Shown: piece by piece, positions 2-22,718 of the stretch | Layout: each line of letters begins with the position of its first letter | Position numbering within the stretch: position 1 is the stretch's first letter | DNA from: Elusimicrobiota bacterium | GTDB taxonomy: Bacteria; Elusimicrobiota; Elusimicrobia; F11 | NCBI GenBank assembly: GCA_046153645.1 | Contig: JBJXGI010000017.1 | Span: 1 to 37,881, forward strand | Length of the DNA: 37,881 nucleotides | Reading direction: 5' to 3' | Translations under genes and position numbers: made by a program | The notes under the pieces: model-generated | What the model saw: only the letters and a program-made list of their open reading frames with translations | What the model was told of the DNA's origin: nothing | Databases searched by the model: none

Positions 2-3000
2 ACTCAAGGATATAGTTCCAATGCCGATTGGGAAGGCAGTTTTGATGATCCTTATGCATCTCGAGTAACGGGTGCTCGTAACGCCTCTTGGACCATCACT
101 GATAATACCGCCAGTTATGTGGATACAGATCCCGCCACCATGGGTCGTATTGTTCGGAGCGCGGCCGGTGTTCCCAAAGTGTATGGCGGAAGTTGGAGTG
201 ATGATGGTTTCCAAAATGTGGTTCGCTCTGATAACTTCACTATTAATAATACGGAGGCCTGGGTTACCTCTGGCCAAACAGTTCCTTATACCACGCGCAA
301 TATGAGTTGGTCTTCCAATCGACAAAGAAGTTCATTTAATGCGGGTGTGATTACCGGTCAAAACGTTGTCGTTTTAGGTGCCAATGGAAATGTAATTGAT
401 TTTAATGTGATGGATGTGTGGGGCGAAGGAAGTTTTAATTCCCCTGTTGCGCGTATCACCGGAAGCTGGACGAAAACAGACACCTCAACATATTTTGACC
501 GAAGTTATAATAATTTTGGTCGTCCAACGGCAATTGCTCCTAGAAGTGTATCAAAAGCACTTTCTTATAATGGTCTTGCCCTTGAAACGGTGGACGACGC
601 CTATTCAGCCAGCCTGACTTATACCACCAGCAATGATGCCATTTGGGCCGCCACTGCAGAACAAAGAACACTCATGCAAGTGACTTTCGGATACAGTTCA
701 AATGCCAATTGGGGTGGAAGTTTTGATGATCCTTATGCTTCTAATATGACCGGGGCTCGCAACGCTTCTTGGTCGGTGGTAAATTACAAAAATAGTTATG
801 TTGATAATGATCCCCTTCGAATGGGACGTTTGATTCGAAGTGAAGCAGGTATGCCTCAAGTTATTGGTGGAAGCTGGAGTGATGACGGATTCCAAACCAT
901 TACAAGATCAGACAACACAACTTTTAACAATCCTCTTGTTTGGGCCACGATGGGACAAACAACGCCATTAGAAGTCAGAAGTAAAAGTTGGAGTTCCGAT
1001 CGCAGTCGTGTCACTTGGAATGCACAAGCCGCTTTGGGAGAAAATATTGTGGTTTATAACGCGGCGGGCAATTCCTTAAACTTTAACGTAATGAACGTTT
1101 GGGGAGACGGAACATTTGAAGCCCCCATTGCAAAAATAACAGGCAGTTGGAATAAATCTGAATCAACCACTTATTTTGATAGAAGCTACAATCAATATGG
1201 TCGTCCCACCGCTCAAGCGCCACGAACCATTTCTAAAGGTCTTAATTTTAATGGACTGGCCTTGCCTCATTTAGATGATGGTTATAGCGCGTCTTACAGT
1301 TATACCAGTAATAATAATCTCATCTGGGAAAAAACCGGCGAGCAGAGAACCTATCAACAAGTCACTTTCGGATATAGCTCCAATGAAAACTGGGGTGGTA
1401 ACTTTGATAATCCTTATACTTCAACGGTGACAGGAGCTCGTCAAACTTCTTGGAATGTGGCTGATTACTCTCATAGTTATGTAACAGACAATGAGGCCCA
1501 AATAGGGCGAGTGATTCGTTCTCAAGCAGGAACTCCGAAAGTATTTGGTGGAAGTTGGAGTGATGATGGTTTCCAAAACGTCACTCACGCTGATACGGTT
1601 ACCATTAACAATTCCATTATCTGGTCAACCATGGGACAAGCGATTCCGCTTGAGTCGCGGGCTCTCAGTTGGTCTTCTGATCGTTTGAGATCCACGTGGG
1701 ACGCTCGCCTTGCTGTTGGAAATGATGTGATTATTTATGACGCTTCAGGCCAAGCCATCAATATGAATGTGATGAATGTATGGGGGCGTGGGACTTTTGA
1801 AAATCCGATTCCTAGAATGACCGGAAGTTGGAATAAATCAGACGCGACCACTTATTATGAATTAAGTTACAACCAATATGGGCGTCCGACAGCCATCGCT
1901 CCTCGAACTCTTTCTAAAGGTTTAAATTACAACGGACTTTCTGTTCCTGGCCTTGATGACGCTTATTCCGGAAGTTTCACCTACATTAGTAACAACGATA
2001 TTATCTGGCAAAGAACGGGTGAACAAAGAACGTTCCAGCAAATTTCATTCGGATATAGTTCGAATGCCAATTGGGATGGAGATTTTGATAATCCCTATAC
2101 TTCAACAGTAACAGGCGCTCGTCAGACTTCATGGAATGTCACAGACTATTCAAAGAGTTATGTTACGGCAAATAACAATCAAATCGGTCAGGTGATTCGC
2201 ACTCAAGCCGGTGTTCCTAAAGTTTATGGTGGAAGCTGGAGTGATGATGGTTTCCAAACCATTACACGCGCTGACACCTTTACAACCAATAGCACTCTTG
2301 TCTGGGCGAATATGGGGCAAGCCACACCTGATCAAGTGCGCAATATGAGTTGGTCTTCTAACCGTCGTCGAGATACTTGGGATGCTCGCGCTGCGGTGGG
2401 GTCTGATGTCATGGCCAGAGACAAAAATGGGAATATCATCAACTTTAATGTCATTGATGCTTGGGGAGAAGGGAGTTTTGATGTGCCTATTCCCAAATCA
2501 ACAGGAAGTTGGAATAAAACAGATTCCTTTACTTATTATGATTTGAGTTATAACGAATTTGGTCGGCCCACCGCGACAGCCCCTAGAACTGTTTCAGACA
2601 GTCTCAATTACAACGGTCTTTCTATTCCTGGGTTAGACGACGCTTATACCGCTTCAAAAACTTATATCAGCAATAATGATTTTATTTGGAAAATCACAGG
2701 TGAGCAGCGCTCGCTTATGCAGGTTTCTTTCTCTTATAGTTCTAATGCGGCCTGGCAAGGGAGTTTTGATAATCCTTATACATCAACGGTGACGGGAGCC
2801 AAACAAGCGTCCTGGTCAGTGACTGATTTTTCAAAGAGTTACATCACGAATGATCCTGAGAAAGTAGGTCAAGTCAATCGCACAGAAGCGGGTGTTCCTA
2901 AAGTTTATGGAGGTTCTTGGAGTGATGACGGTTTCCAAAATGTGACTCGCGCCGATACTTTCACGACCAATAATACAATCGTCTGGATGAATGTTGCCAC

Positions 3001-6000
3001 GACCGTGCCTTTGGAAGTTCGTTCGTTAAGTTGGAGTTCCAATCGAAATCGATCTACTTGGGACGCCCGGCAAGCGGTAGGACAAGATGTCATTGCCTAT
3101 GACGCTCAAGGAAATACGCTTAACTTTAATGTGGTTAATGTTTTTGGTGAGGGATCTTTTGATGTCCCAGTCCCAAAAACAACAGGATCTTGGAGTAAAA
3201 CAGATTCTTCTACCTATTATGATTTAAGTTATAACCAATTTGGTCGTCCAACGGCCGTTGCTCCTCGGTTTGTATCCAGGTCGCTTGGGTATAACGGCTT
3301 ATCTCTCGATACGTTAGATGATGGGTATACCGGTTCGCTTACCTATGGAAGTAATAGTGACGTCATTTGGTCTGCCACTGGCGAACAAAGATCGGCTTTA
3401 CAAGCGACATTCTCTTATAGTTCCAATGCCGCTTGGGAAGGTAGTTTTGACAATCCTTATCAATCTCAAACAACTGGTGCTCGTTCTGCTTCTTGGAGCG
3501 TTACTGATTACACTCAAAGTTATGTCAATAATGATCCTGATCATATGGGTCAAATTATTAGATCTGAGGCGGGTGTTCCAAAAACCTACGGCGGAAGTTG
3601 GAATGATGATGGTTTCCAAAATGTCGTTCGAGCTCAAACAACCACTAAAAACAGCACAGAAATTTGGTCGACGGTGGGACAAGCGACGCCCTTTGAGACG
3701 AATGTAAAGAGTTGGAGTTCCAATCGCAGTCGTGGAACATGGGATGCTTTAAGCGAAATTGGACACGATGTCATTGTTTATGACGCTTTGGGCCAAGCAC
3801 TTAACTTTAATGTGATGAATGTTTGGGGAGGCGGCGAATTTAATAATCCCATCGCAAGAAATACCGGAAGCTGGACCAAATCAGATTCAACAACTTACTA
3901 CGACTTAAGTTATAACCAATTTGGTCGTCCAACCGCGCGAGCCCCACGGACGATTGCCAAAAGTCTCAGCTATAATGGCTTGGCCATGCCTGATTTAGAT
4001 GACGCTTACTCTGCCAGCGTTACCTATACCGCAAACAACAATCCGATTTGGCAGTTAACCGGAGAACAAAGAGCGCTTACACAAGTGACCGTTGGTTATA
4101 GTTCAAACGCCAATTGGGACGGCGATTTTGATAACCCTTATATCTCGTCAATAACAGGGGCTAGATCAGCTTCGTGGTCTATCGTTGATTATTCAAAGAG
4201 TTATGTTGATAGTAACGCGAGCTCCATGGGGCAAATTATTAGAACCGCCGAAGCTGCTCCCACCACCTATGGCGGAAGTTGGAGTGATGATGGTTTTCAA
4301 AATGTCACTCGAGCTGAAACCACGACAATTAATAATGCAGCACCTTGGATCAATGCGGGTTTAAGTATTCCCTTAACTTCTAACTCGAAGAGTTGGACAT
4401 CAAATAGAAATCGAGGAACGTGGGACGCTCAAGCTGCAGTGGGGCATAATGTTTATGCTTATGATGTTTATGGAAACCAAATTGATTTTAATGTGATGTC
4501 CGTTTGGGGTGAAGGAACGTTTGATGACCCTAAAAAACGAGTGACTGGCGGTTGGACCAAAAATGATTCCACCACTTATTTTGAAAAAAGTTACAACGAA
4601 TTTGGTCGCCCGATGAGTGATGCTCCCTATAGTGTTTCAAAGAGTTTAACTTACAATGGGTTATCGCTCCCCAATTTAGATGATGGCTATTTTGCTTCGG
4701 TTTCGTATTTAACCAACAACAATCAAATATGGCAGGGCACTGGTGAACAGCGGTCACTCTTACAAGTTACTTATGGTTATAGTTCAAATGCAGCCTGGGG
4801 TGGTAGTTTTAATGATCCCTATGCTTCGCAAACAACTGGTGCTCGTTCTACTTCTTGGTCTATTGCAGATTACTCAAAGAGTTTTGTTAACAATGATCCT
4901 GCCACGATGGGTCGGGTGATTCGATCAGAAGCTGGCGTGCCCAAAGTTTATGGGGGAAGTTGGAGCGATGATGGTTTCCAAAATGTGACACGGGCCGATA
5001 CGTTTACCAAAAATAATACTGAAATTTGGAACACCATGGGCCAAGCGGTTAACCAAGAAGTAAGAAGTCTTAGCTGGAGTTCAAACAGAAGTAGAGAAAA
5101 TTGGAACGCGTCTTCTGTGGTTGGTCAACCCATTATTGTTTATAACGAACAAGGACAACAAATCAACATGAGTAATATCAGTGTTTGGGGAGGGGGATCT
5201 TTTGCCTCTCCTGTTCCTAAAACAACGGGTAGCTGGAGTAAAACGGATTCAACAACTTATTTTGATCTCAGTTACGACCGGTTTGGTCGTCCCACTGCTA
5301 TTTCTCCTCGAACCATTTCTAAGTCGTTATCTTACAATGGGCTTTCTATTCCAATTATGGATGATGCCTACACGGCTTCTTTAACTTACATTTCCAATAA
5401 CGACATTATTTGGGCGGCTACAGGTGAGCAGCGAACACTTATGCAAGTTTCTTTTAGTTATAGCTCGAATGCCGCGTGGGGAGGAAGTTTTGACAATCCT
5501 TATGCGTCTGCTTTAACCGGAGCGCGTTCTGCTTCATGGAGTGTAGCTGATTATAGTCGTAGTTATGAAATGAATAATGCTGAGTCTATGGGGCAAATTA
5601 TTCGCACAGTAGCTGGTGTTCCTAAAAATTATGGGGGCAGTTGGAGTGATGATGGCTTAGATAATATTAATCGATCTGATATCTTTACAACCAATAACGC
5701 CAATGCGTGGATCAACTCAGGGCAAGTTGTTCCTGAAGAAACAAGAGTAAAAAGTTGGACGTCCAATCGAAACCGAGGAGCATGGGACGCGCAATCTGTA
5801 GTGGGTTCTGATGTTGAAGTAAGGGACGCACAAGGTCAAGTGCTTAACTTTAATCAAATGACTGTTTGGGGAGAGTTTAGTTTTGATCAACCCGGATACA
5901 AAAAATCAGGCGGTTGGAATAAATCGGATTCAACAACTTATTACAAACAAAGTTATAACCAATATGGTCGCCCAACGACGAGAGCGCCTCACACGATTTC

Positions 6001-9000
6001 CAAGGGATTAAGTTATAGTGGTTTACCATTAGAAACCATTGACGATGCTTTTAGCGCAACATTAAGTTACACCACCAATAGCGATGTTATTTGGGAATTA
6101 ACCGGAGAACAAAGAAGTGATTTCCAAATTGTTCAAGGATATAGTTCCAATTCAAATTGGGGGGGAAGTTTTGATAATCCTTTTGCTTCAAGGCAGACGG
6201 GCGCGCGTTCAGCAACATGGTCTGTTTCAGATTATTCCCTCAGTTATGAAAAATCAGATCCATTAAAAATCGGTTCTTTAAAAGCGGCGCAACTTCCAAA
6301 AGTATTTAGTGGAAGCTGGAGTACTGATGGAAAACACAGTTTTAACCGAACAAATAATGAGACAACCAATAACATCACGGTTTGGGGAAATACGGGGGCT
6401 TTGGTTCCTACTGAAGTTGTTTCTCGTACGTTTAGCTCAAATGCTGCTCGTGTCAATTGGGATATCGCCAGTCTCACGGGACAAAATGTTTTTGCCTTTG
6501 ATCCGAATGGAAACCAAATTAGTTTTAATAATTTAAATGTTTGGGGTGGTGGAGAGTATTCGATACCGATCGCCAAACCCACTGGAAGTTGGAATAGTTC
6601 TGAAAGCCGCACTTCTTTTGCGGGATCTTATAATTCATTTGGTCGCCCGACAGCATTGGCTCCTATCACCATTACAACAGGGATTAATTTTGATGGTTTG
6701 GCTCCGGCCGCTTCAGGGGGAGGCAAGAGCACTTCAATAACGATCGCGAAAAATAATGATGTGATCTGGCAGGCCACGGGTGAACAGCGAGCTCTTAATA
6801 CAAAAACCACAACCAATAATGAGACCCCTGGTACAGGGGCTTATTCTGAATCTGTTTCTGAAACAGATTTTAGTCAGAGTTATGAAGACAGTGATCCTGA
6901 AAAAATGGGACGGGTGAGACGTGAGAGTACACCCACTTCAAAAGGAACCTCATTTAGTTTCGATGGATTTTTAAGTTATGTTGGTTCAGAAAGTGAAACA
7001 AAAAATAATGGGGTCATTTGGTCTAATATGGCTCAAGTCACTCCCTTGGAAGTGCTTAGTCGAAGTTGGAGTTCAAACCTAGGAAAGGCAGGCTCATTTA
7101 ATTCTCCCATAGCTCAGATTACAGGTGCCTGGTTTAAGAGTGAGTCAAAAACATTTTATGACTTGAGTTATAATCAATATGGAAAAAATATTTCCGCAGC
7201 ACCCCGAACTGAAACACGAACACTCAATTACAGTGGGAGTTTAATCGACGGCTACTCTGCCTCACAAAGTAATCTCTCCATGGTGGATGCCATTTGGGAA
7301 GAATATGGAGAGCAGAGAAATAAATTTCAGTCTACTGCTGGTTGGAGTTCAGACGCTGGATGGAATGGTTCTTATAACAGCCCTGTTGTTGGTGAGTTAG
7401 AAGTTTCTACCAATTGGAGTCAAACCGACTACGCTGGGAGTTATTCCGCCACAGGACAGTTAACCGGTGTGTTACCACAGACCCAAGGCGGTTTTTGGAA
7501 TTACGATCTAAAATTAACCTATACCGCCGGAACCACAGAAACAACTCACGATGACAAGTTGTGGAATTTAACAGGAAACCTCTACAACGGTAGCGTCAAA
7601 ACACGAAGTTGGTCATCAGATGAAACTTCTGCTGGAAGCCTTGATAGTCCGCTTGCATTGAAAGACGGGTCTCTCTTCAGATCTCAAAACACAGTTAATT
7701 ACGCCGGTTCCTATAGCACGGTTTATGGGACTTTTGGGCGCCCCACCGAATCGGCCCCCACTGCTGAAGGGTGGAGATGGAGCGATAATGGTTTGGGTGA
7801 TGGGGTTATGCTTGTTGGCATTAGCAAAGCGATCACAAAACAAAGCAATCGAAATGATATTTGGTACAACCTTGGCGAAATAAGAACAGAATCATCCACC
7901 GATATTTCTTGGTCGTCAGATCGATCTTTGGTGAGTGGACAGACTGGCTCATCAGGCAGTGAATATGGCGCGGGATCTTTGTCCCAACCTGTTATTCAAG
8001 AAGACGGCACCTCTTTCCGCGCATTTACAAAAATGACGTATGAAAACAGTTTCTTCGCCTCTAATGGAAAAGCCAATGCGGCCGCGGCTCCCTTATCGGA
8101 AGGATGGGTTTTAAGTCATGATGGATTTCGTTTCACCAAAACAATCAATAAACAAACACACAATGGAACAGTGTTTGGTAACACGTCTAGAGTGGTTGCC
8201 TTATTAAATGACAATAAATCATTTTCTTCCGATGACCGAATGATCAGTTCTGATGTGAGTAACCCTGATTGGGGAGGTGGAACTTATTGGACACCGGTGT
8301 TATCCAAAGAAAACAGAACCTTTAGAAGATCGTCCTCCGTAACAAATTATGCAGCCTCTTATGATGGTTTAGGAAGAAACACAACTATAGCCCCTATTGT
8401 TGCAAATTCTATTTCTGAAAGTGGTGAACTTTGGAGAAAACGCGAGTTTAATTCTCAAACTGAAATGGATGGAATGGTTTCCAATATAAAATCTTCAATT
8501 GACGTTCTTGTTGATCAATTTTTAGCTTCTGAAGAAAATCAATTAAAAGCCAATTTACTTCATGAAACACAACATCAGATTTTGTTAGACGAGGTTGGCA
8601 CAATAAAAGCCAATCTAAAATCTGCAATTGATAATTGGGCTTTGTCTCACACAGCGGCCAACACCAGTTATGATGATTTCTATGATTTTATTGTGGACTG
8701 GCTTTCTCAGTTTCCTTCACTTGAAGAGTGGAAAAATGTGAGCAATTTCGATATTCAGCACGAGTTATACAATGTGATTCAGAAAGATTCCGAACATGGG
8801 CCGAATACGAAATTTATTGGTTCTTTAACAGGGTTGAATTCTGGAAATACAACGGTCGACAATAATATCGCAGCCGCACTCAGTTCAGGTGGGGACTTTA
8901 AGTCTATTGTCGCTGGTGTAACGAGTGCCACCACTGAAGTCTCTTCCAATGAAACCTTTTTGAAAGATTTGGGCGAAAAAATTTATCACTTCTCTGATAA

Positions 9001-12000
9001 GAAAAATGTGAAGTTCGATCATACATGGCGCTCAATGTCTTTATCAAAAGTAAAACAAGAAAATCTGGGAAGTGTGTGGAAGAATTTAGGGAAGCAAGTC
9101 GTTAGTAAAATGGAATCGAAATCAACTTCGATTTCGTTAGATGAAGTGGAAACAAGCACAGTTGAAGAAACTGATTATGTTTATGACACCGAAACCGGAG
9201 ATGTTATTTCCGCCTCCGGGTCTGGAACAACGATCACCATTGATGTTTACGGAAATAAACAAACACAGACCTTCACTAAAGATTATGCCCAAGTCGCCCT
9301 AAATCAAGCATTGTTAACAGAGCAAATCACGACGTCAATGACATCAAACAATGCGGACGGATCCAGTGTGATCATGAATGGCGAAAATTCCACTCAATTT
9401 TCTTACAACAAATACGCTCAGTTAACCGACCAGACCAGTCAGAGTTCCGTTACAAATAACGATGGATTTGGGAATCTTTCTCATTCAGATTCGTCCACAA
9501 CATTCATTATCATTCAAGGTATTGCACGCGCTGATAAAACAACGTCACATTCTACTTCTTACTCTAATGATGGAAGCGTTACAGTCGCTGATGATTCTGT
9601 TTTGGATTATGACTATGACAATTTTGGAAATTTAACTAAGGTCACAATGACAGATGGGTCTACAAAAACGACGGATATTTACGGAAACACTCAAGAGCGT
9701 AAGGCTGTCACAAATTATCGACTTTTCATGGGGCAAGCGCGCGTTTATCTCATCTCAGCTACAACGGAAAGTAATAACACAGATGGATCAAAGAGTACCA
9801 CTCAAACAGAAACCTTAAACCGGTGGCAGTCTTCCGGTGCGATGGCTAAAAACATTGCCTCTACGACACGCGGAACGATTATTTCTGATGACGGATATGG
9901 AAACTTAACCGTTGGTTTACGCTCTGAGGGAAAAGGTATTTTCCAAGAGACCAAAAATTACAAAGGATTTGCCAAACAAAGGGTCAATGTCACAAAAGCC
10001 AAAACCAGTCTTTTTGATGGTTCTTGGAATGAATCAACTTCTTGGTCGGTAAGTCAATACAGCGCCAATGGTGTTCTCCTTGGAGGCAATGGTTGGAGAG
10101 ACGGAAAAGGTGACGATGGAAATGGCAATACTGAAATTACTTATGGAACCGATCAGTTAGAAGTCATTCGCGGGGTTCTCAAAATAAAAACCTCAAATGT
10201 TCGGAGTTTAAATTCAGGCTTAGATGGTTCGTTTAACCATACGGTGTTAGATATTAATTACACGAATGCTCAAACAGGCGTTGTTAAACTTCTTGATGCG
10301 CAAGCATCGGGCCGAAGAAAATCAAACGATGGTTGGGGCAATCTCACCAGGGGAATTATTCTCCAGAAGTTTGACAAAGTGGTTATTGCCAATGCCGGTC
10401 GTGCCCTGGCAGAAGAGGTGACAACCAGAAGTACCACTTATGCGATGACGGGTGCTGTTACCGAATCTGAACAAATCACCTTTACAAGGAGAGATGGAAC
10501 AGGAAAAAGTTTAAGTCAATTTTCTTTGGCCAATAGTCGAACCGATGATAGTTTTGGAAATCTGAGTTTTGAAAGTAATCGGCAGGAATTTGAATTTAGA
10601 CAGGGTTTATTTAAGGTGACTTCAGTTATCTCCGAAGGCGGTTTTAGTAAACGAGATTTATCTGAGGGGCTTTTAACAACTATTACCACCTATAAATATA
10701 GTTCTAACTTTAAATTGATCGGAGCCAATGGAACAACTTTGAGCATTGGTTGGGACCGGTGGAATAACAGAAATCGTTCTTTCACTATTAATACCTACGG
10801 TATATTTGCTGGGCAGGCGAAAATTATCCGTTCTGATACGAGAACCCAACTTAGCAATATAGATGGATCCTGGCAGGATCGTGGTCAAACACAGTTATTC
10901 GGATATACCGATAACGGTCGCATATACGATTCTTATAGTTATTACTCGTTTGTGGGAGGAGATGGTTTCTTAACGAATACTTTTGGAAATGGTTTTTCAA
11001 ATTATGATATTTGGTTTGGCCAGGCTTATCAAACAACGGGTTTCAATCAACAGGGTTCAGATAGTCTTCGTGGTGGATGGAGTGAGTCCCAAGAAAACGT
11101 GGTTTATAATTACACCTATGGGTTGGGGCAAGGGAATAATCCATATCTAAACCTCAATAGCTTTAATGATGTCACACCTTTTGCGATGCCAAAATTCTTA
11201 ACGGTCTCCAGTCAAGGGATTTATAATTCACAGTCATTTGATAATGGAATTCTCTCTATTGAAACAAATGGCGTGAGAAACTCTTATATTATTGGAAATA
11301 CCAATATTCTCAAAGTAACAGATGAAACCGTCCTTAATTATCGAACCTACAACCAAACAGGCTGGTACCCAATCGATCAAACTGCCGGAAGTAAAGTGGC
11401 CACCTATACTTACGATAACGGAACAGCCGAATTCGTTAGTGGATATTCGTTGGCGCAAACCAATGTTTTTAGGTCGGAGAAAACCTCTGGTGTGGTGAAT
11501 TATTTTGGAACCAATAAAAAAGAAACCTTTTTCGCCAATATGGCTGGCAAACGTGTTGTGCTTTTGGACGTAACCACTTCTAAGTTAACGACGACTTACA
11601 ATGGTGTTGTGAAAAGCGTTTCAAATTCCAGTGCAATCACAGATTTTTATTATAACGCTGTTGGAAATAGCACTTATAGTATTGAAGATTCAAATTCCAC
11701 TTCAACCAGTGAAGGTGTGTTTTCTCGTTCTCATTCCATTAAAACTTCTCTGAACTTATTTGGAGTGTTAGACTCTATTTCAACGGTCACCACATCAACG
11801 AGTATTGGAAAGCTTCAAGAGTATGTGACAACCTCACGTAGTTGGGTCAACCGAACATGGAGTATTTTTGGCCAAACCGGGGCTACTGGTGGATTTTCAA
11901 ATTCAACAACGAGAGTTGTTTTTAACAATGCCACCGGCGCCATGGGCGGTCACATCCAAGGTTCTACTACCAGCGGATCATCGGGAACAAATAAGTACGC

Positions 12001-15000
12001 GATTTATTATGGGGTGGGTGAGCAAGTGATGGTAACTCGCTCTAGTGATGGGAATTCTCAGACAGTAACAACTTATAAACGTAATGCGGTGGGATTGGGG
12101 CTTTCTTCTGTTTCAGTGAATACCCGCATTAGCGGAGGCGGAGATTGGGTTTCTGTGGCAGTCACTTCAAGCGTTCGTGATTGGGGTGAACATTTCCGGA
12201 TTAACACAGTTGCCTTAACAGAGGTTCAGCCTCTGTGGGTTTTTGAAATGGTTAAGCCAGTTGCAGTTAATTTATCTCTAGTCAGAAACTATTCTTATAA
12301 CGGTGCGGGTGTTCTTGTTGGGGTGGATGTTACTGACGTCAAAGCGAGGGTTGCCTTTAATAACTCTAGTTATTTAAATGTCCATGATTTAGCCAAAGCC
12401 ATTCAAGGTCCTTTGGCCGCGCAAAACGGCATTCTTTATTTCAATACTTTGGTTCTCGATGAAAAAGGAATTGAGGTAGATTATAGAGAAGATTGGATTG
12501 TGGTTGATGGAGATGCGTATCGCACAAAAACAAGTCATGATTTTGGGTTTATGGGTTTCAAGAATAACGGAATTAATTTTACTGGTGATTATATCCGCGT
12601 TCATACCTCCAAACAGTTCACTTATTTTAATAATGCTTTCAGGCAGTTAACCCATGTTGAAAACACGAATTACAAAGAACATTTATCAACGAATCAAAAC
12701 TCATTCCAGATTGACCCGCGTTTCGTTGAAACAGGTGAAATTTATTCTTATTCCCATGCCAACCGTTTTGGAATGAAAATTGAAAATGGGGCTGAAACCA
12801 AAGCGGGCGATATCATTGACGAAGAAATTAATGAAGAAATTGTGAAAATCACTCGCGGAGTGGCTCCTCCAGGGGGCGTTCCACCGATGATTATTGATTG
12901 GAAATCACTTTGGACCACTGGAGGAGTATGGACCCAGCGAGCACCTGGAAGTCGTCTTAAAAGTTCCCTTGTTTCCAATGTAGGGGCCAGTGGTTTCATG
13001 TTCCATTGGGGGAACTTAGGTAATTTTGGATTCCCGATTAAAGGGAATATTAAAAATCATAAATTTACTATTGGTTATGGTAATCAATTTGGCGCAGGAG
13101 CTTTTTGGGATCCAACCTGGTTAAGGCCAGGTGGTTTCTTAAGTTCGAGAAGTGCCGCGTGGCAGCCTATTGCGGTAGCGACAGTCCCTGGTGATGGGTT
13201 AGACCCTACAGATGATGATTTTAGACACAACGGGCCTGGGGCTTTGAATCGAATTGATCCCGATAAAGGAGAAGGAGACAAAGCGGCCGAGGCGCCTAAA
13301 GGCAATCAAAAACCTGCTGAAGAAAAAGATAAAGCCAAAGACAAAGATGGAAACCAAGAAAAGAAAGGACCCGGAGTTGGAACGGAAGAAAAGAAAGACG
13401 CACAGGGGCGTCCTATCCCCGGTGATAAAAATCCTGGCAATAATAATGGTGCTGGCGCTGGTAGGGATGGTGCCAATGAGAAACCGAAGGATAATAGAAC
13501 GGCCGATCAAATTCGCCAAGACACAAAAAAAGTTGGAGATGCCACAGCCAAGCAGAAAGATCTCTTTAAAGATGAAAAAGGAAATATTCCTCAAAACGTT
13601 CGTCCTATTTATGATCCTAAGTCAGGTAAATTGATCGGATATCAGGCTGAATATGAAAAAGGAAAAACACGCATATTTGCTAATCAGCTTGTAGCCGGGA
13701 GAGTTGTTCCTGTGAGATTAAATGAAGCTCAATCCGCATTTATCGAACAAGGGCTTTCCGGTGTTAAAAATGGTAAAGGAGAGTTTGTCAATAATGAGCG
13801 ATTTATTTCGATTGAGTCATTCGCTCGTGCATTATCTCCAGCTCAATTAAAATCTTTGGTCGTGTTATCCGGCACTGCTGAAGGAAAAGCTGTAGGTGAA
13901 TCAATTGGAAATGGGCGAACTCATAAAACTTTTGAAGTTGATGGTCGTGGCCGATCTCCGGGAGCTGGTCTAGGAAAAGTAAATAACCGTACGACAAAAT
14001 CAGTAAAAACCGAATTGGTTCCATCTGCTCAGGGCGCTGCCGGAAATGGAGCAAATGCTCAGCAACAAGCGAAGAACGGAAATGGTGCGCCCAGACAACC
14101 TGGAGAAAAGAAAAATGAAAAACCAAAGAGTTTACAGCAGGCCACTCGCGACGCTATTCGAGAGCTGACTAAAAAAATTAATAACTTAAAAGAAGGTGAA
14201 CAGCTTTTAGATAAAGCAGGAAATCCGCAATTTTTCCAGGTAACTTTCATTCGTTACGACAAGAAAACAGGACAGTATTTGAAAGAAACAATCGTTGTTA
14301 GTGTTCATCGACTTGCAGACGGTCGGCATGTCATAAAAGGCGCTAACGCAGAAGAGCAAAAGAAGCTTGATACAGTTGATCGAGTTGCGGTGGGAAATTC
14401 TACCACAAAGCCTGATCCTAAACAGGGCCTCATTTTATATTCCAATCAAATTGCATCTATTCTCGTTTCAGGTGTTGTTCTTTATCAGGAAAAAGTTGAG
14501 AAGAAAGCCCCTGCTAACCCCAATAATCAGGCAGACAAACCCAATCAAGGTAAAAAATCTGAGCCTCAACAGGCTCAAGGGTTAAATGGGCAAGGTCAAT
14601 TAAATACTCCAGCTCAAAAATTATCAGAACCTTTCAAAGCAGTCCTCATGGAAAAAGGGCCTACTGGCAAGGTTAAGAAAAAAGAAGTTGAGTTGGTTAT
14701 GGCTATCATGAATGATGGAACAGTTACTCTAAAAGATAAAAAAACCGGAGAAATTGTTAAGTCTGGGACCAACATCTTATTGGTTGGAGGAGTCAATGGT
14801 CAAATTCAGATTAATAAAAAGGGAGAGCTCGTGGTCCCTTCTGCACTTCAGGCCATTGTTGGTGCGAAACTGACATCAATGCTTCAAGCCAAATATAACG
14901 GAGATAAATCTAAATTTGTTGGACTTCAAAAAACCTCGGCAGGAGCTGTGTTTAAAGTATTTCATGTGAAGTTAGATGTTGATCGAGGTTTAACTCTAAA

Positions 15001-17134
15001 AACTGTTGAGAACGGAAAAACTGGGGACGTGAGTCTTGAAAAAGGAGAAGTAAGTCTTTTTACTCCTGCTGGAGTTACCACTCTTCGAGTAGATTCAAAT
15101 ACGGAGAAAGGCACGGCGTTTAAATTAGCTTCACCTAAAACAGCTTCAAGTGCTTTTGTTATTGGTGCGCTTATTAATAGTTTAGAAACAGGTCCGGATG
15201 CTAAATCCTCAGATATGAAGGCATTGGTGGTCACCTCAGATGGAAAGTTAAGTGTTGCTACCATTAAAATTGAGGGGGGAAAAGTCTCTATAAAAGAAGA
15301 CCGAGGGCAAACAATGGGCCAAGTGACTGTTTATACGAGGACGGCCAGAATTGATGCCAATATGGTTCAAGGTAAAGTTTCAGAAGTTCAAAAGATTCGC
15401 GGTGGCGCAGGACTTGCGGGGGCCTCTCAAAATATAAATCAGTTCTTTGCAAAAATTGAACTATCAAAAGCTGTGAGCGTGTTAAAAGATTTACAAGGGA
15501 AATTGAATGCACTTCCAGCGGGGGCACTCCCAGCGAATGTGCTGGCTCTCAAAGGGGCGATTAATAATTTAATTTCTGGAAACAAAGTTATTGATAGACC
15601 GACTTTGCTTCATTTTGTGAATTTAGTTTTTGGCTCTAGTGTTGATGCGGCCGCAAATCTTCAAGATCGTATTGGTAGCTTTAATGCGTTTTTAAGTAGC
15701 GGTTTAGATGTTAAACCGTTATTCGACCTTTTAAAGAGTGGTCCTGACACAAGCAAATTTGATCGAGTAGAAGTCATTGCCCCTAATAACCCACTCATAA
15801 TTTATGAAATGCCTCAGAATCTCATGTTAAGCACCAATTTGCCTGGGCTTTTTGCGGCGCTCGGAGATGCAAATCTTTCTGTTCAACAATTACCAGGTCA
15901 ATATGTCGCTAAATTTGGTGCTGCCATGGCTCAAAATTTTAAAGAAGGTTTTTCTAAAGTAAAAAATGACCCCAGGCTTCAAAACGGTTATATGGCGATC
16001 ATAAATCAAGGTGGGGTTCCCCAAATTGCTGTCATTGCAATGGACCCAGCCAATCCAAAACAAAGCACCATTTGGACTCCGCTGAATGGGTTTACGAAAA
16101 GCATTGTTTATGAAGAACCCAGCAAGGCCAATCTCAGCAAATTGCCTATGCCAGGTATCAATAACGATTTTCGTCCCGGGGTGATTAATAGTGGAAAGTT
16201 TGATTTGCAAAAATCATTTGCCCCTGTGGTTAAATCAATTTGGAATGAGACTCAGTTATTCTCCGCTGCTGGACATGCCTTTGGAAATGATCTTCATCAT
16301 TCTCAGGTATCTCTGTCTGCCCAACAGCTGGTAGGTGGGTTGAACGGTTCAGGTATAACCGATCACCATGAGACAGCTGGTGTGATTTTGGTTTCTGAAA
16401 ATAAAGGCAAGTTACAATTCAACGGGACTCATGTTTTTAGAACAGTTCATTTTAGAAGTGAAACATCAATTTATCCAACGACAGCGCAGTTTGAAGTGGC
16501 TCAAACAATTAACGATATTTGGAATCAAAATGATGATGAAGAAAATGTGAGAGCTGAAATTCAACGCTTGCTTGAAGCGCGACCAGAAATGCAGGATATG
16601 TTTGTACTCTCTGCATCATTCAAAGATGACGAGGAAAAACTTCTAAACGTTCTCTTGGGTGCAGAAGCTTTCTCCACAGAAGCTGGAATTATGGTGTTAG
16701 ATAAGAGTTACCGCCATATTCAGGGCACGTTTGTTCCATTCCATACTCATTTGGGTCACCCCGAAAACTTTACGCAGTGGGCTCCGTATTCCCCGACTCC
16801 TGAGGATATAAGCGCGCATAAATCTCTTATGGTGAGCTATCGCAAAACTCACGGCATACACTTGAATTTGCCTGGCGTTATTTTCCATTCAGCAGGGCAA
16901 ATTTCAATGTTCTGGGTTTCACAAGATGGGAGTGGTAAAGTTCAACTTCAAGTATTTGATGGTGAAGGAAAGATATTTGATGTCATCACTTCTGAAAAAA
17001 CACTTGCTTATGCCTATTTAGGAGTTGACCCCGCTAGTGATCACGATCGTCCTCTTGAGCAAAAGCGCTCAGGGCTGGAAAACATCTATATTCATAAAGT
17101 CATTCTTTGGGATAATCGCCGCCGCTTGTTTTAG
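2..17134 (+). CDS. Giant repetitive beta-rich protein, 5'-truncated (at least 5710 aa visible); tandem repeats, YD/RHS-like region, C-terminal JAB/MPN-like motif
   Basis: The frame is open from position 2 (TQGYSSNADWEGSFDDPY...) to TAG at 17132-17134. The GTG at 119 in the ORF track is an internal Val inside a repeat. The repeats are conserved at protein level with many synonymous differences, which supports coding. Confidence 0.95.
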   Translation, partial: TQGYSSNADWEGSFDDPYASRVTGARNASWTITDNTASYVDTDPATMGRIVRSAAGVPKVYGGSWSDDGFQNVVRSDNFTINNTEAWVTSGQTVPYTTRNMSWSSNRQRSSFNAGVITGQNVVVLGANGNVIDFNVMDVWGEGSFNSPVARITGSWTKTDTSTYFDRSYNNFGRPTAIAPRSVSKALSYNGLALETVDDAYSASLTYTTSNDAIWAATAEQRTLMQVTFGYSSNANWGGSFDDPYASNMTGARNASWSVVNYKNSYVDNDPLRMGRLIRSEAGMPQVIGGSWSDDGFQTITRSDNTTFNNPLVWATMGQTTPLEVRSKSWSSDRSRVTWNAQAALGENIVVYNAAGNSLNFNVMNVWGDGTFEAPIAKITGSWNKSESTTYFDRSYNQYGRPTAQAPRTISKGLNFNGLALPHLDDGYSASYSYTSNNNLIWEKTGEQRTYQQVTFGYSSNENWGGNFDNPYTSTVTGARQTSWNVADYSHSYVTDNEAQIGRVIRSQAGTPKVFGGSWSDDGFQNVTHADTVTINNSIIWSTMGQAIPLESRALSWSSDRLRSTWDARLAVGNDVIIYDASGQAINMNVMNVWGRGTFENPIPRMTGSWNKSDATTYYELSYNQYGRPTAIAPRTLSKGLNYNGLSVPGLDDAYSGSFTYISNNDIIWQRTGEQRTFQQISFGYSSNANWDGDFDNPYTSTVTGARQTSWNVTDYSKSYVTANNNQIGQVIRTQAGVPKVYGGSWSDDGFQTITRADTFTTNSTLVWANMGQATPDQVRNMSWSSNRRRDTWDARAAVGSDVMARDKNGNIINFNVIDAWGEGSFDVPIPKSTGSWNKTDSFTYYDLSYNEFGRPTATAPRTVSDSLNYNGLSIPGLDDAYTASKTYISNNDFIWKITGEQRSLMQVSFSYSSNAAWQGSFDNPYTSTVTGAKQASWSVTDFSKSYITNDPEKVGQVNRTEAGVPKVYGGSWSDDGFQNVTRADTFTTNNTIVWMNVATTVPLEVRSLSWSSNRNRSTWDARQAVGQDVIAYDAQGNTLNFNVVNVFGEGSFDVPVPKTTGSWSKTDSSTYYDLSYNQFGRPTAVAPRFVSRSLGYNGLSLDTLDDGYTGSLTYGSNSDVIWSATGEQRSALQATFSYSSNAAWEGSFDNPYQSQTTGARSASWSVTDYTQSYVNNDPDHMGQIIRSEAGVPKTYGGSWNDDGFQNVVRAQTTTKNSTEIWSTVGQATPFETNVKSWSSNRSRGTWDALSEIGHDVIVYDALGQALNFNVMNVWGGGEFNNPIARNTGSWTKSDSTTYYDLSYNQFGRPTARAPRTIAKSLSYNGLAMPDLDDAYSASVTYTANNNPIWQLTGEQRALTQVTVGYSSNANWDGDFDNPYISSITGARSASWSIVDYSKSYVDSNASSMGQIIRTAEAAPTTYGGSWSDDGFQNVTRAETTTINNAAPWINAGLSIPLTSNSKSWTSNRNRGTWDAQAAVGHNVYAYDVYGNQIDFNVMSVWGEGTFDDPKKRVTGGWTKNDSTTYFEKSYNEFGRPMSDAPYSVSKSLTYNGLSLPNLDDGYFASVSYLTNNNQIWQGTGEQRSLLQVTYGYSSNAAWGGSFNDPYASQTTGARSTSWSIADYSKSFVNNDPATMGRVIRSEAGVPKVYGGSWSDDGFQNVTRADTFTKNNTEIWNTMGQAVNQEVRSLSWSSNRSRENWNASSVVGQPIIVYNEQGQQINMSNISVWGGGSFASPVPKTTGSWSKTDSTTYFDLSYDRFGRPTAISPRTISKSLSYNGLSIPIMDDAYTASLTYISNNDIIWAATGEQRTLMQVSFSYSSNAAWGGSFDNPYASALTGARSASWSVADYSRSYEMNNAESMGQIIRTVAGVPKNYGGSWSDDGLDNINRSDIFTTNNANAWINSGQVVPEETRVKSWTSNRNRGAWDAQSVVGSDVEVRDAQGQVLNFNQMTVWGEFSFDQPGYKKSGGWNKSDSTTYYKQSYNQYGRPTTRAPHTISKGLSYSGLPLETIDDAFSATLSYTTNSDVIWELTGEQRSDFQIVQGYSSNSNWGGSFDNPFASRQTGARSATWSVSDYSLSYEKSDPLKIGSLKAAQLPKVFSGSWSTDGKHSFNRTNNETTNNITVWGNTGALVPTEVVSRTFSSNAARVNWDIASLTGQNVFAFDPNGNQISFNNLNVWGGGEYSIPIAKPTGSWNSSESRTSFAGSYNSFGRPTALAPITITTGINFDGLAPAASGGGKSTSITIAKNNDVIWQATGEQRALNTKTTTNNETPGTGAYSESVSETDFSQSYEDSDPEKMGRVRRESTPTSKGTSFSFDGFLSYVGSESETKNNGVIWSNMAQVTPLEVLSRSWSSNLGKAGSFNSPIAQITGAWFKSESKTFYDLSYNQYGKNISAAPRTETRTLNYSGSLIDGYSASQSNLSMVDAIWEEYGEQRNKFQSTAGWSSDAGWNGSYNSPVVGELEVSTNWSQTDYAGSYSATGQLTGVLPQTQGGFWNYDLKLTYTAGTTETTHDDKLWNLTGNLYNGSVKTRSWSSDETSAGSLDSPLALKDGSLFRSQNTVNYAGSYSTVYGTFGRPTESAPTAEGWRWSDNGLGDGVMLVGISKAITKQSNRNDIWYNLGEIRTESSTDISWSSDRSLVSGQTGSSGSEYGAGSLSQPVIQEDGTSFRAFTKMTYENSFFASNGKANAAAAPLSEGWVLSHDGFRFTKTINKQTHNGTVFGNTSRVVALLNDNKSFSSDDRMISSDVSNPDWGGGTYWTPVLSKENRTFRRSSSVTNYAASYDGLGRNTTIAPIVANSISESGELWRKREFNSQTEMDGMVSNIKSSIDVLVDQFLASEENQLKANLLHETQHQILLDEVGTIKANLKSAIDNWALSHTAANTSYDDFYDFIVDWLSQFPSLEEWKNVSNFDIQHELYNVIQKDSEHGPNTKFIGSLTGLNSGNTTVDNNIAAALSSGGDFKSIVAGVTSATTEVSSNETFLKDLGEKIYHFSDKKNVKFDHTWRSMSLSKVKQENLGSVWKNLGKQVVSKMESKSTSISLDEVETSTVEETDYVYDTETGDVISASGSGTTITIDVYGNKQTQTFTKDYAQVALNQALLTEQITTSMTSNNADGSSVIMNGENSTQFSYNKYAQLTDQTSQSSVTNNDGFGNLSHSDSSTTFIIIQGIARADKTTSHSTSYSNDGSVTVADDSVLDYDYDNFGNLTKVTMTDGSTKTTDIYGNTQERKAVTNYRLFMGQARVYLISATTESNNTDGSKSTTQTETLNRWQSSGAMAKNIASTTRGTIISDDGYGNLTVGLRSEGKGIFQETKNYKGFAKQRVNVTKAKTSLFDGSWNESTSWSVSQYSANGVLLGGNGWRDGKGDDGNGNTEITYGTDQLEVIRGVLKIKTSNVRSLNSGLDGSFNHTVLDINYTNAQTGVVKLLDAQASGRRKSNDGWGNLTRGIILQKFDKVVIANAGRALAEEVTTRSTTYAMTGAVTESEQITFTRRDGTGKSLSQFSLANSRTDDSFGNLSFESNRQEFEFRQGLFKVTSVISEGGFSKRDLSEGLLTTITTYKYSSNFKLIGANGTTLSIGWDRWNNRNRSFTINTYGIFAGQAKIIRSDTRTQLSNIDGSWQDRGQTQLFGYTDNGRIYDSYSYYSFVGGDGFLTNTFGNGFSNYDIWFGQAYQTTGFNQQGSDSLRGGWSESQENVVYNYTYGLGQGNNPYLNLNSFNDVTPFAMPKFLTVSSQGIYNSQSFDNGILSIETNGVRNSYIIGNTNILKVTDETVLNYRTYNQTGWYPIDQTAGSKVATYTYDNGTAEFVSGYSLAQTNVFRSEKTSGVVNYFGTNKKETFFANMAGKRVVLLDVTTSKLTTTYNGVVKSVSNSSAITDFYYNAVGNSTYSIEDSNSTSTSEGVFSRSHSIKTSLNLFGVLDSISTVTTSTSIGKLQEYVTTSRSWVNRTWSIFGQTGATGGFSNSTTRVVFNNATGAMGGHIQGSTTSGSSGTNKYAIYYGVGEQVMVTRSSDGNSQTVTTYKRNAVGLGLSSVSVNTRISGGGDWVSVAVTSSVRDWGEHFRINTVALTEVQPLWVFEMVKPVAVNLSLVRNYSYNGAGVLVGVDVTDVKARVAFNNSSYLNVHDLAKAIQGPLAAQNGILYFNTLVLDEKGIEVDYREDWIVVDGDAYRTKTSHDFGFMGFKNNGINFTGDYIRVHTSKQFTYFNNAFRQLTHVENTNYKEHLSTNQNSFQIDPRFVETGEIYSYSHANRFGMKIENGAETKAGDIIDEEINEEIVKITRGVAPPGGVPPMIIDWKSLWTTGGVWTQRAPGSRLKSSLVSNVGASGFMFHWGNLGNFGFPIKGNIKNHKFTIGYGNQFGAGAFWDPTWLRPGGFLSSRSAAWQPIAVATVPGDGLDPTDDDFRHNGPGALNRIDPDKGEGDKAAEAPKGNQKPAEEKDKAKDKDGNQEKKGPGVGTEEKKDAQGRPIPGDKNPGNNNGAGAGRDGANEKPKDNRTADQIRQDTKKVGDATAKQKDLFKDEKGNIPQNVRPIYDPKSGKLIGYQAEYEKGKTRIFANQLVAGRVVPVRLNEAQSAFIEQGLSGVKNGKGEFVNNERFISIESFARALSPAQLKSLVVLSGTAEGKAVGESIGNGRTHKTFEVDGRGRSPGAGLGKVNNRTTKSVKTELVPSAQGAAGNGANAQQQAKNGNGAPRQPGEKKNEKPKSLQQATRDAIRELTKKINNLKEGEQLLDKAGNPQFFQVTFIRYDKKTGQYLKETIVVSVHRLADGRHVIKGANAEEQKKLDTVDRVAVGNSTTKPDPKQGLILYSNQIASILVSGVVLYQEKVEKKAPANPNNQADKPNQGKKSEPQQAQGLNGQGQLNTPAQKLSEPFKAVLMEKGPTGKVKKKEVELVMAIMNDGTVTLKDKKTGEIVKSGTNILLVGGVNGQIQINKKGELVVPSALQAIVGAKLTSMLQAKYNGDKSKFVGLQKTSAGAVFKVFHVKLDVDRGLTLKTVENGKTGDVSLEKGEVSLFTPAGVTTLRVDSNTEKGTAFKLASPKTASSAFVIGALINSLETGPDAKSSDMKALVVTSDGKLSVATIKIEGGKVSIKEDRGQTMGQVTVYTRTARIDANMVQGKVSEVQKIRGGAGLAGASQNINQFFAKIELSKAVSVLKDLQGKLNALPAGALPANVLALKGAINNLISGNKVIDRPTLLHFVNLVFGSSVDAAANLQDRIGSFNAFLSSGLDVKPLFDLLKSGPDTSKFDRVEVIAPNNPLIIYEMPQNLMLSTNLPGLFAALGDANLSVQQLPGQYVAKFGAAMAQNFKEGFSKVKNDPRLQNGYMAIINQGGVPQIAVIAMDPANPKQSTIWTPLNGFTKSIVYEEPSKANLSKLPMPGINNDFRPGVINSGKFDLQKSFAPVVKSIWNETQLFSAAGHAFGNDLHHSQVSLSAQQLVGGLNGSGITDHHETAGVILVSENKGKLQFNGTHVFRTVHFRSETSIYPTTAQFEVAQTINDIWNQNDDEENVRAEIQRLLEARPEMQDMFVLSASFKDDEEKLLNVLLGAEAFSTEAGIMVLDKSYRHIQGTFVPFHTHLGHPENFTQWAPYSPTPEDISAHKSLMVSYRKTHGIHLNLPGVIFHSAGQISMFWVSQDGSGKVQLQVFDGEGKIFDVITSEKTLAYAYLGVDPASDHDRPLEQKRSGLENIYIHKVILWDNRRRLF
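11..6139 (+). repeat. Nine intragenic tandem repeats of exactly 681 bp (227 aa)
   Basis: The Tyr codon of the YSSN motif starts at 11, 692, 1373, 2054, 2735, 3416, 4097, 4778, 5459 and 6140, all 681 bp apart. Shared motifs include GGSWSDDGFQ, SWSS[ND]R, [YF]GRPT and [TA]GEQR. Confidence 0.97.
6140..9130 (+). repeat. Degenerate, shortened continuation of the 227-aa repeat
   Basis: xGEQR-like anchors at 6101, 6776, 7304 and 7871 are spaced 225, 176 and 189 aa apart. The last trace is VWKNLGKQ near 9080. Confidence 0.8.
9176..11113 (+). repeat. Nine cryptic 69-75-aa beta-rich repeats (YD/RHS-like)
   Basis: DxxGN-like anchors at 9242, 9461, 9674, 9890, 10115, 10328, 10547, 10754 and 10961. Most are followed by GQA[RK]-like, DGS and YxY[DN]xxG-like turns. 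Confidence 0.75.
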
Positions 17135-18421: not shown

Positions 18422-18445
18422 GTGGCCCCCTTGCCCTTATCTAAG

Positions 18446-20944: not shown

Positions 20945-20972
20945 TTGAAAAACAGTGTCAAACCTTTATACT
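20945..20972 (+). promoter_or_regulatory. Putative sigma70 promoter TTGAAA-N16-TATACT upstream of the ATPase
   Basis: Both hexamers match consensus at 5/6. The -10 ends 11 nt before the ATG at 20984. Confidence 0.45.
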
Positions 20973-20983
20973 GGAAATAGATT

Positions 20984-22717: not shown

Positions 22718-22718
22718 T

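Follow-up and report, generated by a model that had tools for sequence, protein, structure and literature searches.

The first 17 kb of the window (the whole stretch of 37,881 nucleotides that was analysed, from an Elusimicrobiota bacterium) open inside a tandem array whose units keep their length while their sequences differ widely. What does such an array encode, and what holds its length? Giant proteins are common and almost unannotated in Elusimicrobiota, according to passages of PMC11573180. We consider it slightly better than an even bet that the array forms the regular middle part of a giant protein, likely secreted, whose four-strand modules coil up as a single hollow tube with a fixed module count, and that this tube holds or delivers a metalloenzyme of JAB type at a defined distance from the cell.

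The giant gene and its neighbours

The features of the window are collected in Table 1. Complete orthologues from Elusimicrobiota relatives have 18,016 and 18,143 aa and a signal-peptide-like start; from its sequence, the giant protein is likely to be secreted. One to three hydrophobic stretches were found per giant protein, and neither the G008 orthologue nor the window protein gave matches to SecA, glycosyltransferase or dockerin families or contained a run of membrane helices.

Table 1. Features of the giant gene and its downstream context in the window
Feature	Position	Strand	Basis
3' part of a giant gene, 5,710 aa, open at the contig start	2..17134	+	Frame call and orthologues
Nine gap-free 227-aa units, each with a predicted eight long strands, two short helices and one small insert (unit positions 106-137), forming two four-strand half-modules	11..6139	+	Alignment and model
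Unit 10, 225 aa, with a 2-aa deletion; 45% identity to unit 4	6140..6814	+	
Edge units 11-12, without the 35-aa insert, and the two last half-modules	6815..8431	+	Same-edge collinearity in orthologues
About 235 aa without module matches, probably helical (judged from sequence), kept in orthologues	8432..9136	+	
Successive four-strand modules of ~70-75 aa with YD-like turns; both halves of the 227-aa unit are homologous to them	9137..11026	+	
Ser/Thr-rich, probably beta region, ~30% conserved in orthologues	11027..13105	+	
D-P-x-W/Y...P-x-G-G motif ending the conserved region	13106..13135	+	D-P in 7 of 8 aligned orthologues
Charged low-complexity linker and ~930 aa of basic, variable region	13172..16351	+	17-26% identity to orthologues
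Likely C-terminal JAB/MPN-fold domain with ~70-aa helical insertion	16352..17131	+	Residues and model
Convergent response regulator and histidine kinase, downstream context outside the giant protein	17726..19918	-	Conserved neighbours

The response regulator and histidine kinase lie downstream in all nine loci found with the JAB-like domain. A ParE-type pair stands between the giant gene and the response regulator in the window, and none was seen at the corresponding place in the relatives' listed loci; no immunity gene was seen beside the JAB domain in the window or in the relatives' loci. On the upstream side, a Tad/Omp85 cluster precedes the giant gene only in G008 and G003, and in G000 it precedes a different gene. 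The 5' part of the giant gene found no match in the genome's other 104 contigs. Contig C20 was considered as the 5' continuation and rejected: the upstream cluster is present on it but leads into a different gene.

An old array in which strands are kept and loops are free

The ten YSSN anchors reported by the first-pass annotation are indeed 681 bp apart (starts at 11, 692, 1373, 2054, 2735, 3416, 4097, 4778, 5459 and 6140). The bounds that it gave to the array, 11..6139, enclose the gap-free units but are not the limits of the repeat, which continues to about position 8431 (units 10-12 and two halves) and is cut at its other side, where the contig begins inside the array. An alignment of the nine complete units contains no gap in any of its 227 columns, of which 64 are invariant. 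Pairs of units share 53-70% amino acid and 60-68% nucleotide identity; identity is 0.45 at third positions and 0.35 at four-fold sites, compared to 0.27 expected from composition. Synonymous sites between the window units are near saturation (pN 0.27, pS 0.72), with dS saturated in eight of 36 unit pairs and 1.4-5.4 in the other 28, and with dN of 0.24-0.40. Pairwise dN/dS, proposed earlier as a check on which a value near 1 would count against the structural reading, is at most 0.28 and points to an old array under purifying selection.

The longest exact DNA run shared by window units is 29 bp, and the array is therefore no assembler duplication, as had been argued from its divergence. Contigs from four runs of one study, which may be the source of the window and so are not independent, match it mostly at 99% or more, and neither differences nor indels were listed. 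The same runs also contain parts of additional units that the window lacks; all nine of these parts with computable offsets keep the 681-bp register, in one case minus the 6 bp missing from unit 10.

One earlier claim finds no support, namely that the structural register needs an exact unit length. Loop indels occur in the arrays of three of four relatives, and at equal divergence the distinct gap blocks number 6 in G003, 12 in G009 and 30 in G006. Inside the eight predicted strands, by comparison, 78 units show no deletions and a single insertion site (2 rows). What is conserved is thus the length of the strands and the number of modules, whereas loops are free to vary in length. The window array is gap-free because all of its units descend from one compact unit type, although zero gaps are still somewhat unexpected (P 0.02 at the rate of G003, 0.0007 at the pooled rate of the relatives). 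These gap and identity counts omit edge units (unit 10 of G000, unit 19 of G008, and 7 of 19, 7 of 16 and 3 of 14 units in G003, G009 and G006, respectively).

A match to a known Pfam repeat, which would have counted against the structural reading, was not found: Pfam, NCBIfam and PDB sequence searches with the repeat gave no family above cut-off. Tandem Repeats Finder reported nothing, the 681-bp period being above its limit. The two halves of the 227-aa unit are homologous to each other (HHalign 98.6%, E 6e-16). They also match the ~75-aa module (HHalign 90%, E 1e-6, 72 columns), whose rows were chosen with the half-unit profile, which favours the match; a 69-73-aa period is visible without the profile. 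Reversed-sequence controls reach 1.7 bits. Over aa ~2,450-16,000 there are 125 modules in G008 and 127 in G003, and none in reversed copies. Module coverage is 50-70% in aa 6,000-10,000, and several kb of chain have no module match; such module-free stretches may break the tube.

Predicted structure

AlphaFold2 predicted three units with high confidence (pLDDT 94.0, pTM 0.88; five models at 92.8-94.0), giving 24 long strands, two helices per unit and strands that cross the unit boundary, with no low-confidence segment. The model spans 1.7 turns and was built from 35 alignment rows. Its residues 59-442 and 288-661, 14 strands each and one unit apart, align with nearly the entire FadL barrel (Z 7.8-9.2, rmsd 3.7-4.1, 174-198 aligned) and residues 289-669 with the whole of OmpG (Z 9.3, rmsd 3.3, 158 aligned), although curved sheets commonly reach Z-scores of 7-9.6 against barrels, and such values indicate curvature only. 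A ring closed by about 14 strands, with 1.75 units per turn and ~25-29 A across, is predicted. The proposal of a rigid super-helical beta sheet is supported by the model, in which three units fold as one rigid body and the 14-strand rings span unit boundaries. No match was found in a viral structure library at E 0.001.

One face of the strands consists of small, uncharged residues: with strand parity set by eye, it is 85% S/T/G/A/N and 0% charged in the window, and 79% and 4% in 78 units. This face is kept in all five lineages. The Ser/Thr/Gly face would line the lumen, and the aromatic and charged face, with the short helices, would lie outside. The inward face is inferred, as are the handedness and the turn-to-turn contacts. 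The array would make about 13 turns and measure 30-40 nm; the whole meander would measure at least ~90-110 nm if continuous.

Module number in relatives

Unit number, which had been proposed to set the length of a filament or tube, looks fixed. Between the same anchors, 45 half-modules were counted in all four countable relatives (G008, G003, G006 and G009), which represent two genera and of which two were summed across contig breaks; G005, whose array is interrupted by a gap, was left out. The same number despite changed repeat sequence and length suggests that tube length matters. Identity between the relatives' arrays is 20-47%. Between G008 and G003 the array interiors are 24% identical, compared to 47-66% for the flanks and 91% for PilB, and the window's edge (6815..8431) shares 33-49% with these two genomes in 250-aa bins. 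If the count is fixed, eight more full units and three half-modules are expected upstream of the window.

One alternative, which we rate as rather unlikely, holds that the equal count merely follows from gene conversion in the absence of crossover and that tube length is not selected. In a unit tree from a quick search, interior units cluster by genome and edge units pair across genomes, as homogenisation would predict; exact runs reach 47 bp among the G008 units; and G006 and G009 are still collinear and may therefore count as one observation. However, unit types of 231 and ~245 aa, 24% identical, have been swapped within one genus with no gain or loss of units, and the near-saturated synonymous sites of the window leave room for little recent conversion. 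A further point against this explanation is that tandem arrays of 15 kb should change in copy number through unequal crossover.

In six of the family's 11 other genomes (71-96% complete) no array was found, and 29 genomes of other families gave nothing beyond one weak match; fragmented assemblies may hide it. A pattern scan of genome contigs with the window units gave 132 candidates, none confirmed. A database search with a module-rich piece returned five matches, all named Elusimicrobia or Elusimicrobiota (7,989 candidates of 1,295-3,695 aa). No description of the family was found in the open-licence literature, where preprint supplements may contain Elusimicrobiota examples, and the passages of the Ca. 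Obscuribacterium preprint contained none on giant proteins.

The C-terminal domain

The protein likely ends in a JAB/MPN-fold metalloenzyme domain with putative activity. First, E5457, H5581, H5583, T5599 and D5602 are invariant in 11 of 11 orthologues, so that the E ... H-x-H ... S/T-x-x-D motif is intact. Second, the domain model (pLDDT 81) matches BRCC36, PfJAMM1, RadC and Sst2 (Z 7.0-7.7, rmsd 2.5-4.1, 99-126 aligned). Its top VIA rows are all MPN-domain proteins (Z 7.7, rmsd 2.5, 110 residues), the first clearly unrelated row standing at Z 4.9, and the titles of 45 among 47 Foldseek rows name MPN proteins or complexes, at E-values of 0.04 or weaker. Third, the nearest named Atlas clusters are DUF4329, Toxin-JAB1 and Prok-JAB. 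At the sequence level, none of the 11 orthologues matches a curated JAB family at E up to 10, all lie below the Pfam thresholds, and a PDB sequence search with the domain gave no match. In canonical JAMM motifs seven residues separate the second His from the S/T. Compared to the JAB/MPN+ (JAMM) enzymes PfJAMM1 (5ld9) and RadC (2qlc), the domain shares the fold and the E, H-x-H, S/T and D residues, but has 15 residues between the second His and the Thr, carries a helical insertion and is constant across the family. The same JAB-like domain ends all 11 orthologues; the tip is not polymorphic.

This constancy bears on a further alternative, in which the tube is no more than a rigid stalk or adhesin shaft through which nothing passes, and the JAB domain processes its own protein or has its substrate at a surface. 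Synteny of the gene and the constancy of its end domain (nine loci, the window and G003) are as for a housekeeping surface structure; there is no immunity gene; and a fixed count suits a spacer. We nevertheless hold a mere shaft to be unlikely. The small, uncharged strand face of all five lineages exceeds what a plain shaft needs, and the conserved D-P motif and the variable basic region stand before the enzyme as in cargo-bearing RHS proteins. JAB domains are known as such cargo, Tox-JAB-1 and Tox-JAB-2/DUF4329 domains occurring behind RHS repeats according to passages of PMC3482391.

Comparison with known systems

The RHS/YD shells (T6SS RhsA 7q97, Tse15 8uy4, Tc TcB-TcC 6suq, teneurins 7bam, TLP 9ifo) resemble the giant protein in their long antiparallel beta meander with Y-x-Y-D-x-x-G-type turns and in the order of beta region, D-P motif, variable region and enzyme. 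Could the protein then be an oversized RHS-type polymorphic toxin, whose meander closes into one or more cocoons around a self-cleaved toxin? Besides this order of parts, and the ParE-type pair that comes next in the window, the repeat profiles lend some support: outside the array, RHS_repeat reaches 19.4 bits in the window (cut-off 22) and 25 bits once in G008, and YD_repeat_2x reaches 17.7-19 bits (cut-off 15.8) in three of 13 pieces; neither profile matched within the array. Foldseek lists shells of RHS, Tc and teneurin proteins in its first 14 rows (E 2e-6 to 2e-4), yet at TM of at most 0.15 and rmsd of 23-30 A, which indicates the same kind of meander in a different shape; shells are absent among the 50 VIA matches listed for the three-unit model, an absence that does not exclude them. 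We regard a cocoon as quite improbable. The meander exceeds 13,000 aa (aa ~2,450-16,000), more than ten times the roughly 1,000-1,500 aa of an RHS core, and is made of four-strand modules of 70-110 aa with helices. The conserved region ends without the canonical DPxG, the only DPxG of the window protein sitting in a loop of unit 10, although the D-P-x-W/Y at the end of that region is a possible analogue. The tip is constant, and the relatives' listed loci have no ParE-type pair at the matching place. That the units are independent bead-like domains on flexible linkers, as their large size and small insert subdomain might suggest, is scarcely credible given a three-unit model of such confidence and rings that extend over unit boundaries.

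Similar in architecture are giant proteins of Omnitrophota, for which passages of West-Roberts et al. (bioRxiv 10.1101/2023.11.21.568195) describe predicted hollow antiparallel beta tubes of ~1,500 aa with outer helices. Compared by description, these predicted architectures share a single chain of antiparallel strands forming a hollow tube with regularly spaced short helices, a partial likeness to RHS shells, and giant proteins near type II secretion or Tad-like genes. By the same passages, the present case differs in belonging to Elusimicrobiota, in a meander that makes up most of an 18,000-aa protein, in the periodic array of fixed count and terminal JAB domain, and in lacking a membrane-helix run and SecA or glycosyltransferase matches. 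The many membrane helices and the SecA, glycosyltransferase and dockerin domains of Archaeovorin/Dockerin-type giants were likewise not found here. Cag_663 and Cag_665 of 'Chlorochromatium aggregatum' are giant beta proteins, each a single chain of 240-400 nm, that have been proposed to reach and enter a partner bacterium, but, in the passages of bioRxiv 10.64898/2026.03.19.712371, they form parallel beta-helices that carry haemagglutinin motifs and calcium sites, whereas an antiparallel meander with no such Pfam match is present here. The giant protein resembles RHS shells and the predicted Omnitrophota tubes, yet departs from RHS toxins in core size, DPxG, polymorphic tip and immunity.

A proposed mechanism

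For the tube of fixed length that carries a JAB enzyme, the N-terminal signal would start export by Sec. The basic, variable stretch of 900-1,300 aa and the JAB domain would form the cargo, or a tip in contact with a partner, prey or host cell, and the tube would likely bring this far-end enzyme to a neighbouring cell. Gene conversion or balanced expansion may renew the interior units while selection holds their number. One point against delivery is that, in contrast to toxin cargo, the JAB domain stays constant across the orthologues and lacks an immunity gene. A bolder version, which we put forward as doubtful, is that one gene encodes its own injection tube: an 18,000-aa chain forming an antiparallel beta conduit of at least 100 nm, its length counted out in modules (45 in the array, a number retained although the sequence is wholly replaced), through whose Ser/Thr-lined lumen a self-cleaved basic cargo ending in the JAB enzyme would pass into a contacted cell.

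The family gives one Elusimicrobiota giant protein a predicted structure and a testable job. With its regular unit it offers a small part, suited to expression, of an RHS-like tube fold without a solved example, and the fixed module count under full sequence turnover is a clean natural case of a protein ruler. The genome as a whole contains 53 frames of at least 1,500 aa, which make up 18% of it.

Authenticity and extent of the array

The first-pass annotation described a tandem array of 681-bp (227-aa) units at 11..6139, diverged in sequence, exact in length and not duplicated by the assembly. Its ten YSSN anchors are indeed spaced by exactly 681 bp, and the nine complete units align without a gap at 53–70% protein identity and 60–68% DNA identity. 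The longest exact DNA run that units have in common is 29 bp, and the window sequence agrees with contigs of four runs from a single study, which may be its source. The array is thus genuine and not an artefact. Among the nine units, pN is 0.27 and pS 0.72; of the 36 unit pairs, 8 have saturated dS, and in the remaining pairs dN/dS does not exceed 0.28, far from 1. The span was drawn too narrowly: shorter, older units extend the array to ~8431, and the runs contain unit pieces absent from the window, so that it also extends upstream. Loose ends and joints in the runs can be read as at least five different out-of-window pieces at one unit position, and the 681-bp register fits all nine computable offsets of such pieces.

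A periodic section of a long beta meander

HHalign shows homology between the two halves of the unit (98.6%, E 6e-16 with the family alignment; 34%, E 4e-4 when only the nine window units are used). A ~75-aa module of four strands with YD-like turns recurs outside the array, and each half of the unit matches it (90%, E 1e-6). The same-family relatives G008 and G003 carry 125 and 127 modules, respectively, over aa ~2,450–16,000, and the same count on reversed copies of both proteins gave zero. Given this homology and the span of the modules over the chain, the array is the periodic section of one very long beta meander. A known Pfam repeat had been named as a possible refutation; no family in Pfam or the PDB accounts for the repeat, and RHS/YD matches are weak and all lie outside the array.

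Of the 11 other genomes in the family, 5 were found to have the repeat, and a search of 1.84 billion representative proteins gave 24 with it. With a module-rich piece as query, 251 genomes of the phylum gave giant frames in 10, which belong to five families; the two largest of the sampled families (79 and 70 genomes) gave none. Literature searches, supplements apart, found no published description of this protein family.

Predicted shape

An AlphaFold2 model of three units, built from 35 in-register rows, reached pLDDT 94.0 and pTM 0.88 with no weak linker; bead-like domains on flexible linkers, the other outcome held to count against a rigid array, are not predicted. Each modelled unit has eight strands of 9–11 residues, two short helices and one small insert. 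In Foldseek, RHS, Tc and teneurin shells rank first, with TM of at most 0.15. In VIA-align, 14 consecutive strands cover almost entire 14-strand barrels in two registers shifted by one unit (FadL, Z 7.8–9.2, rmsd 3.7–4.1; OmpG, Z 9.3, rmsd 3.3), scores that show curvature and not kinship. The model suggests a spiral of ~14 strands per turn, 25–29 Å in diameter by the barrel formula with an assumed shear. Small polar, uncharged residues make up 85% of one strand face, and the opposite face is 29% aromatic and 31% charged; to judge from this composition rather than from coordinates, the small-polar face would line the lumen. At 25–30 Å per turn, the array would be roughly 30–40 nm long and the whole meander, if unbroken, at least 90–110 nm.

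Unit length and module number

Gap blocks are absent from the arrays of the window's genome (G000, 9 units) and G008 (18 units), and number 6 in 12 units of G003, 12 in 9 of G009 and 30 in 11 of G006, at unit identities of 60%, 62% and 48%. Strand positions in 78 units show no deletion and one insertion site (2 rows). Exact unit length thus belongs to the compact unit type of G000 and G008 and is not something that the fold requires. The proposed array thus stands as old, real, under purifying selection and predicted to be a rigid beta structure, and exact unit length as its constraint does not.

The number of half-modules between one and the same pair of anchors is 45 in both G008 and G003, and also in G006 (32+12+1) and G009 (8+35+2), where the array lies over three contigs and each break is bridged by the other genome. 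Interior units are 20–28% identical between most genomes (39% for G000–G008, 47% for G006–G009), and the array flanks of G008 and G003 are 47–66% identical. The count is probably fixed at 45, as judged from a small sample of four genomes in two genera. Since 26 of these 45 lie in the window, eight more units and three halves are predicted upstream. The suggestion that unit number sets length gains from the constant count in all four relatives; against it, conversion without crossover could also keep the count, without selection.

A quick tree places interior units with others of their own genome and joins some edge units from different genomes. The interior type of G008 is 39% identical to that of G000, from another genus, and 24% to that of G003, from its own genus; here and in edge unit 19 of G008 (see the table), an old type may have been retained, or a unit type transferred between genera.

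The C-terminal end

The conserved beta region is followed by a D-P-x-W/Y motif, seen in 7 of 8 orthologues, then by a charged linker and a basic region of variable sequence, and last by a conserved domain. In all 11 sequences compared, this domain has the same E, H-T-H, T and D residues (one of nine loci having been dropped as a repeat of a sequence already included). The domain model (pLDDT 81) superposes on MPN domains over 110 residues (Z 7.7, rmsd 2.5), the Foldseek list is weak but uniform, and the nearest named Atlas clusters, as a lead only, are JAB families (0.87–0.89). No curated profile matches the domain, which we take as a predicted JAB/MPN-like domain. According to PMC3482391, RHS repeats can be followed by JAB domains, which are proposed to act as nucleases; there they are polymorphic and accompanied by immunity genes, whereas the domain here is constant and has no immunity gene.

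Proposed function

The best reading, which we hold to be somewhat probable, is a secreted single chain that would form a tube of fixed length and hold or deliver a putative JAB-tipped part at a contacted cell. That the protein forms a tube is quite probable; passage through its lumen is doubtful. The main rival to a tube that holds or delivers this part is a plain stalk. In its working the protein would amount to an elongated, tubular RHS protein. It falls short of an RHS-type toxin in three respects: core length, DPxG before the tip, and a variable C-terminus with an immunity gene. Predicted Omnitrophota tubes look similar, but the membrane and enzyme content described for them in 10.1101/2023.11.21.568195 is absent here; RHS, JAB and Elusimicrobiota go unmentioned in the portions consulted of a 2026 Omnitrophota survey (10.64898/2026.06.07.730766).

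Gene family and neighbourhood

Complete orthologues have 18,016 aa (G008) and 18,143 aa (G003), and their N-termini are basic, followed by a hydrophobic, signal-like stretch. The window protein is collinear with both through to the last domain, and the G000 assembly lacks the first ~10,000 residues. Nine loci with the last domain were recovered, all titled Elusimicrobia/Elusimicrobiota, one being Ca. Obscuribacterium magneticum; a response regulator and a kinase lie 3' of the giant gene in all nine, as in the window. Upstream in G008 and G003 are an Omp85/POTRA gene and Tad genes; the link is weak because in G000 this cluster precedes another gene. Genes after the kinase hint at c-di-GMP and pilus control nearby.

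Coordinates of the giant gene, its neighbours and related loci
Location	Feature	Remarks
Window 2..17134 (+)	Giant-gene frame, 5,710 aa	Open at contig start, the window being all of contig C6 of G000; no cysteine
Window 16450-16670	~70-aa helical insertion inside JAB-like domain	Common to 3 of 11 orthologues
Window 17180-17721	ParE-family toxin gene (Pfam, above cut-off), between giant gene and response regulator	83-aa gene upstream probably its antitoxin; pair not seen at corresponding place in relatives' loci listed
Window 20015-23783	Receiver-GGDEF, PilB-type ATPase with MshEN domain, GAF-HD genes	PilB and GAF-HD position kept in relatives listed
G000:C20:2-14390	Omp85/POTRA gene, Tad-like genes, CHASE2 cyclase, ABC pair	Same genes upstream of giant gene in G008, G003; the gene that follows here runs off contig
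L032:14746-15432	Unit 19 of G008, edge unit	44–52% identical to window's units 1–9, 41% to own array
L014 (G008 aa 4300-5950)	Module length rises along chain, ~70 to 85–100 aa	Intermediate forms resemble array's halves
G005:C91:46481-78911	Orthologue in a relative, two overlapping frames, 3,651 + 7,191 aa	Collinear with G008 aa 11-3576 and 3569-10829; frameshift or assembly error
G024:C20:2-56953	18,984-aa frame, another family of the class	Open at contig start; same ~75-aa modules, different C-terminus

Among the large frames of G000, only the window's frame matches the module profile. That genome has 53 open frames of at least 1,500 aa, up to 10,189 aa in length, which together account for 18% of its assembled 2.6 Mb.
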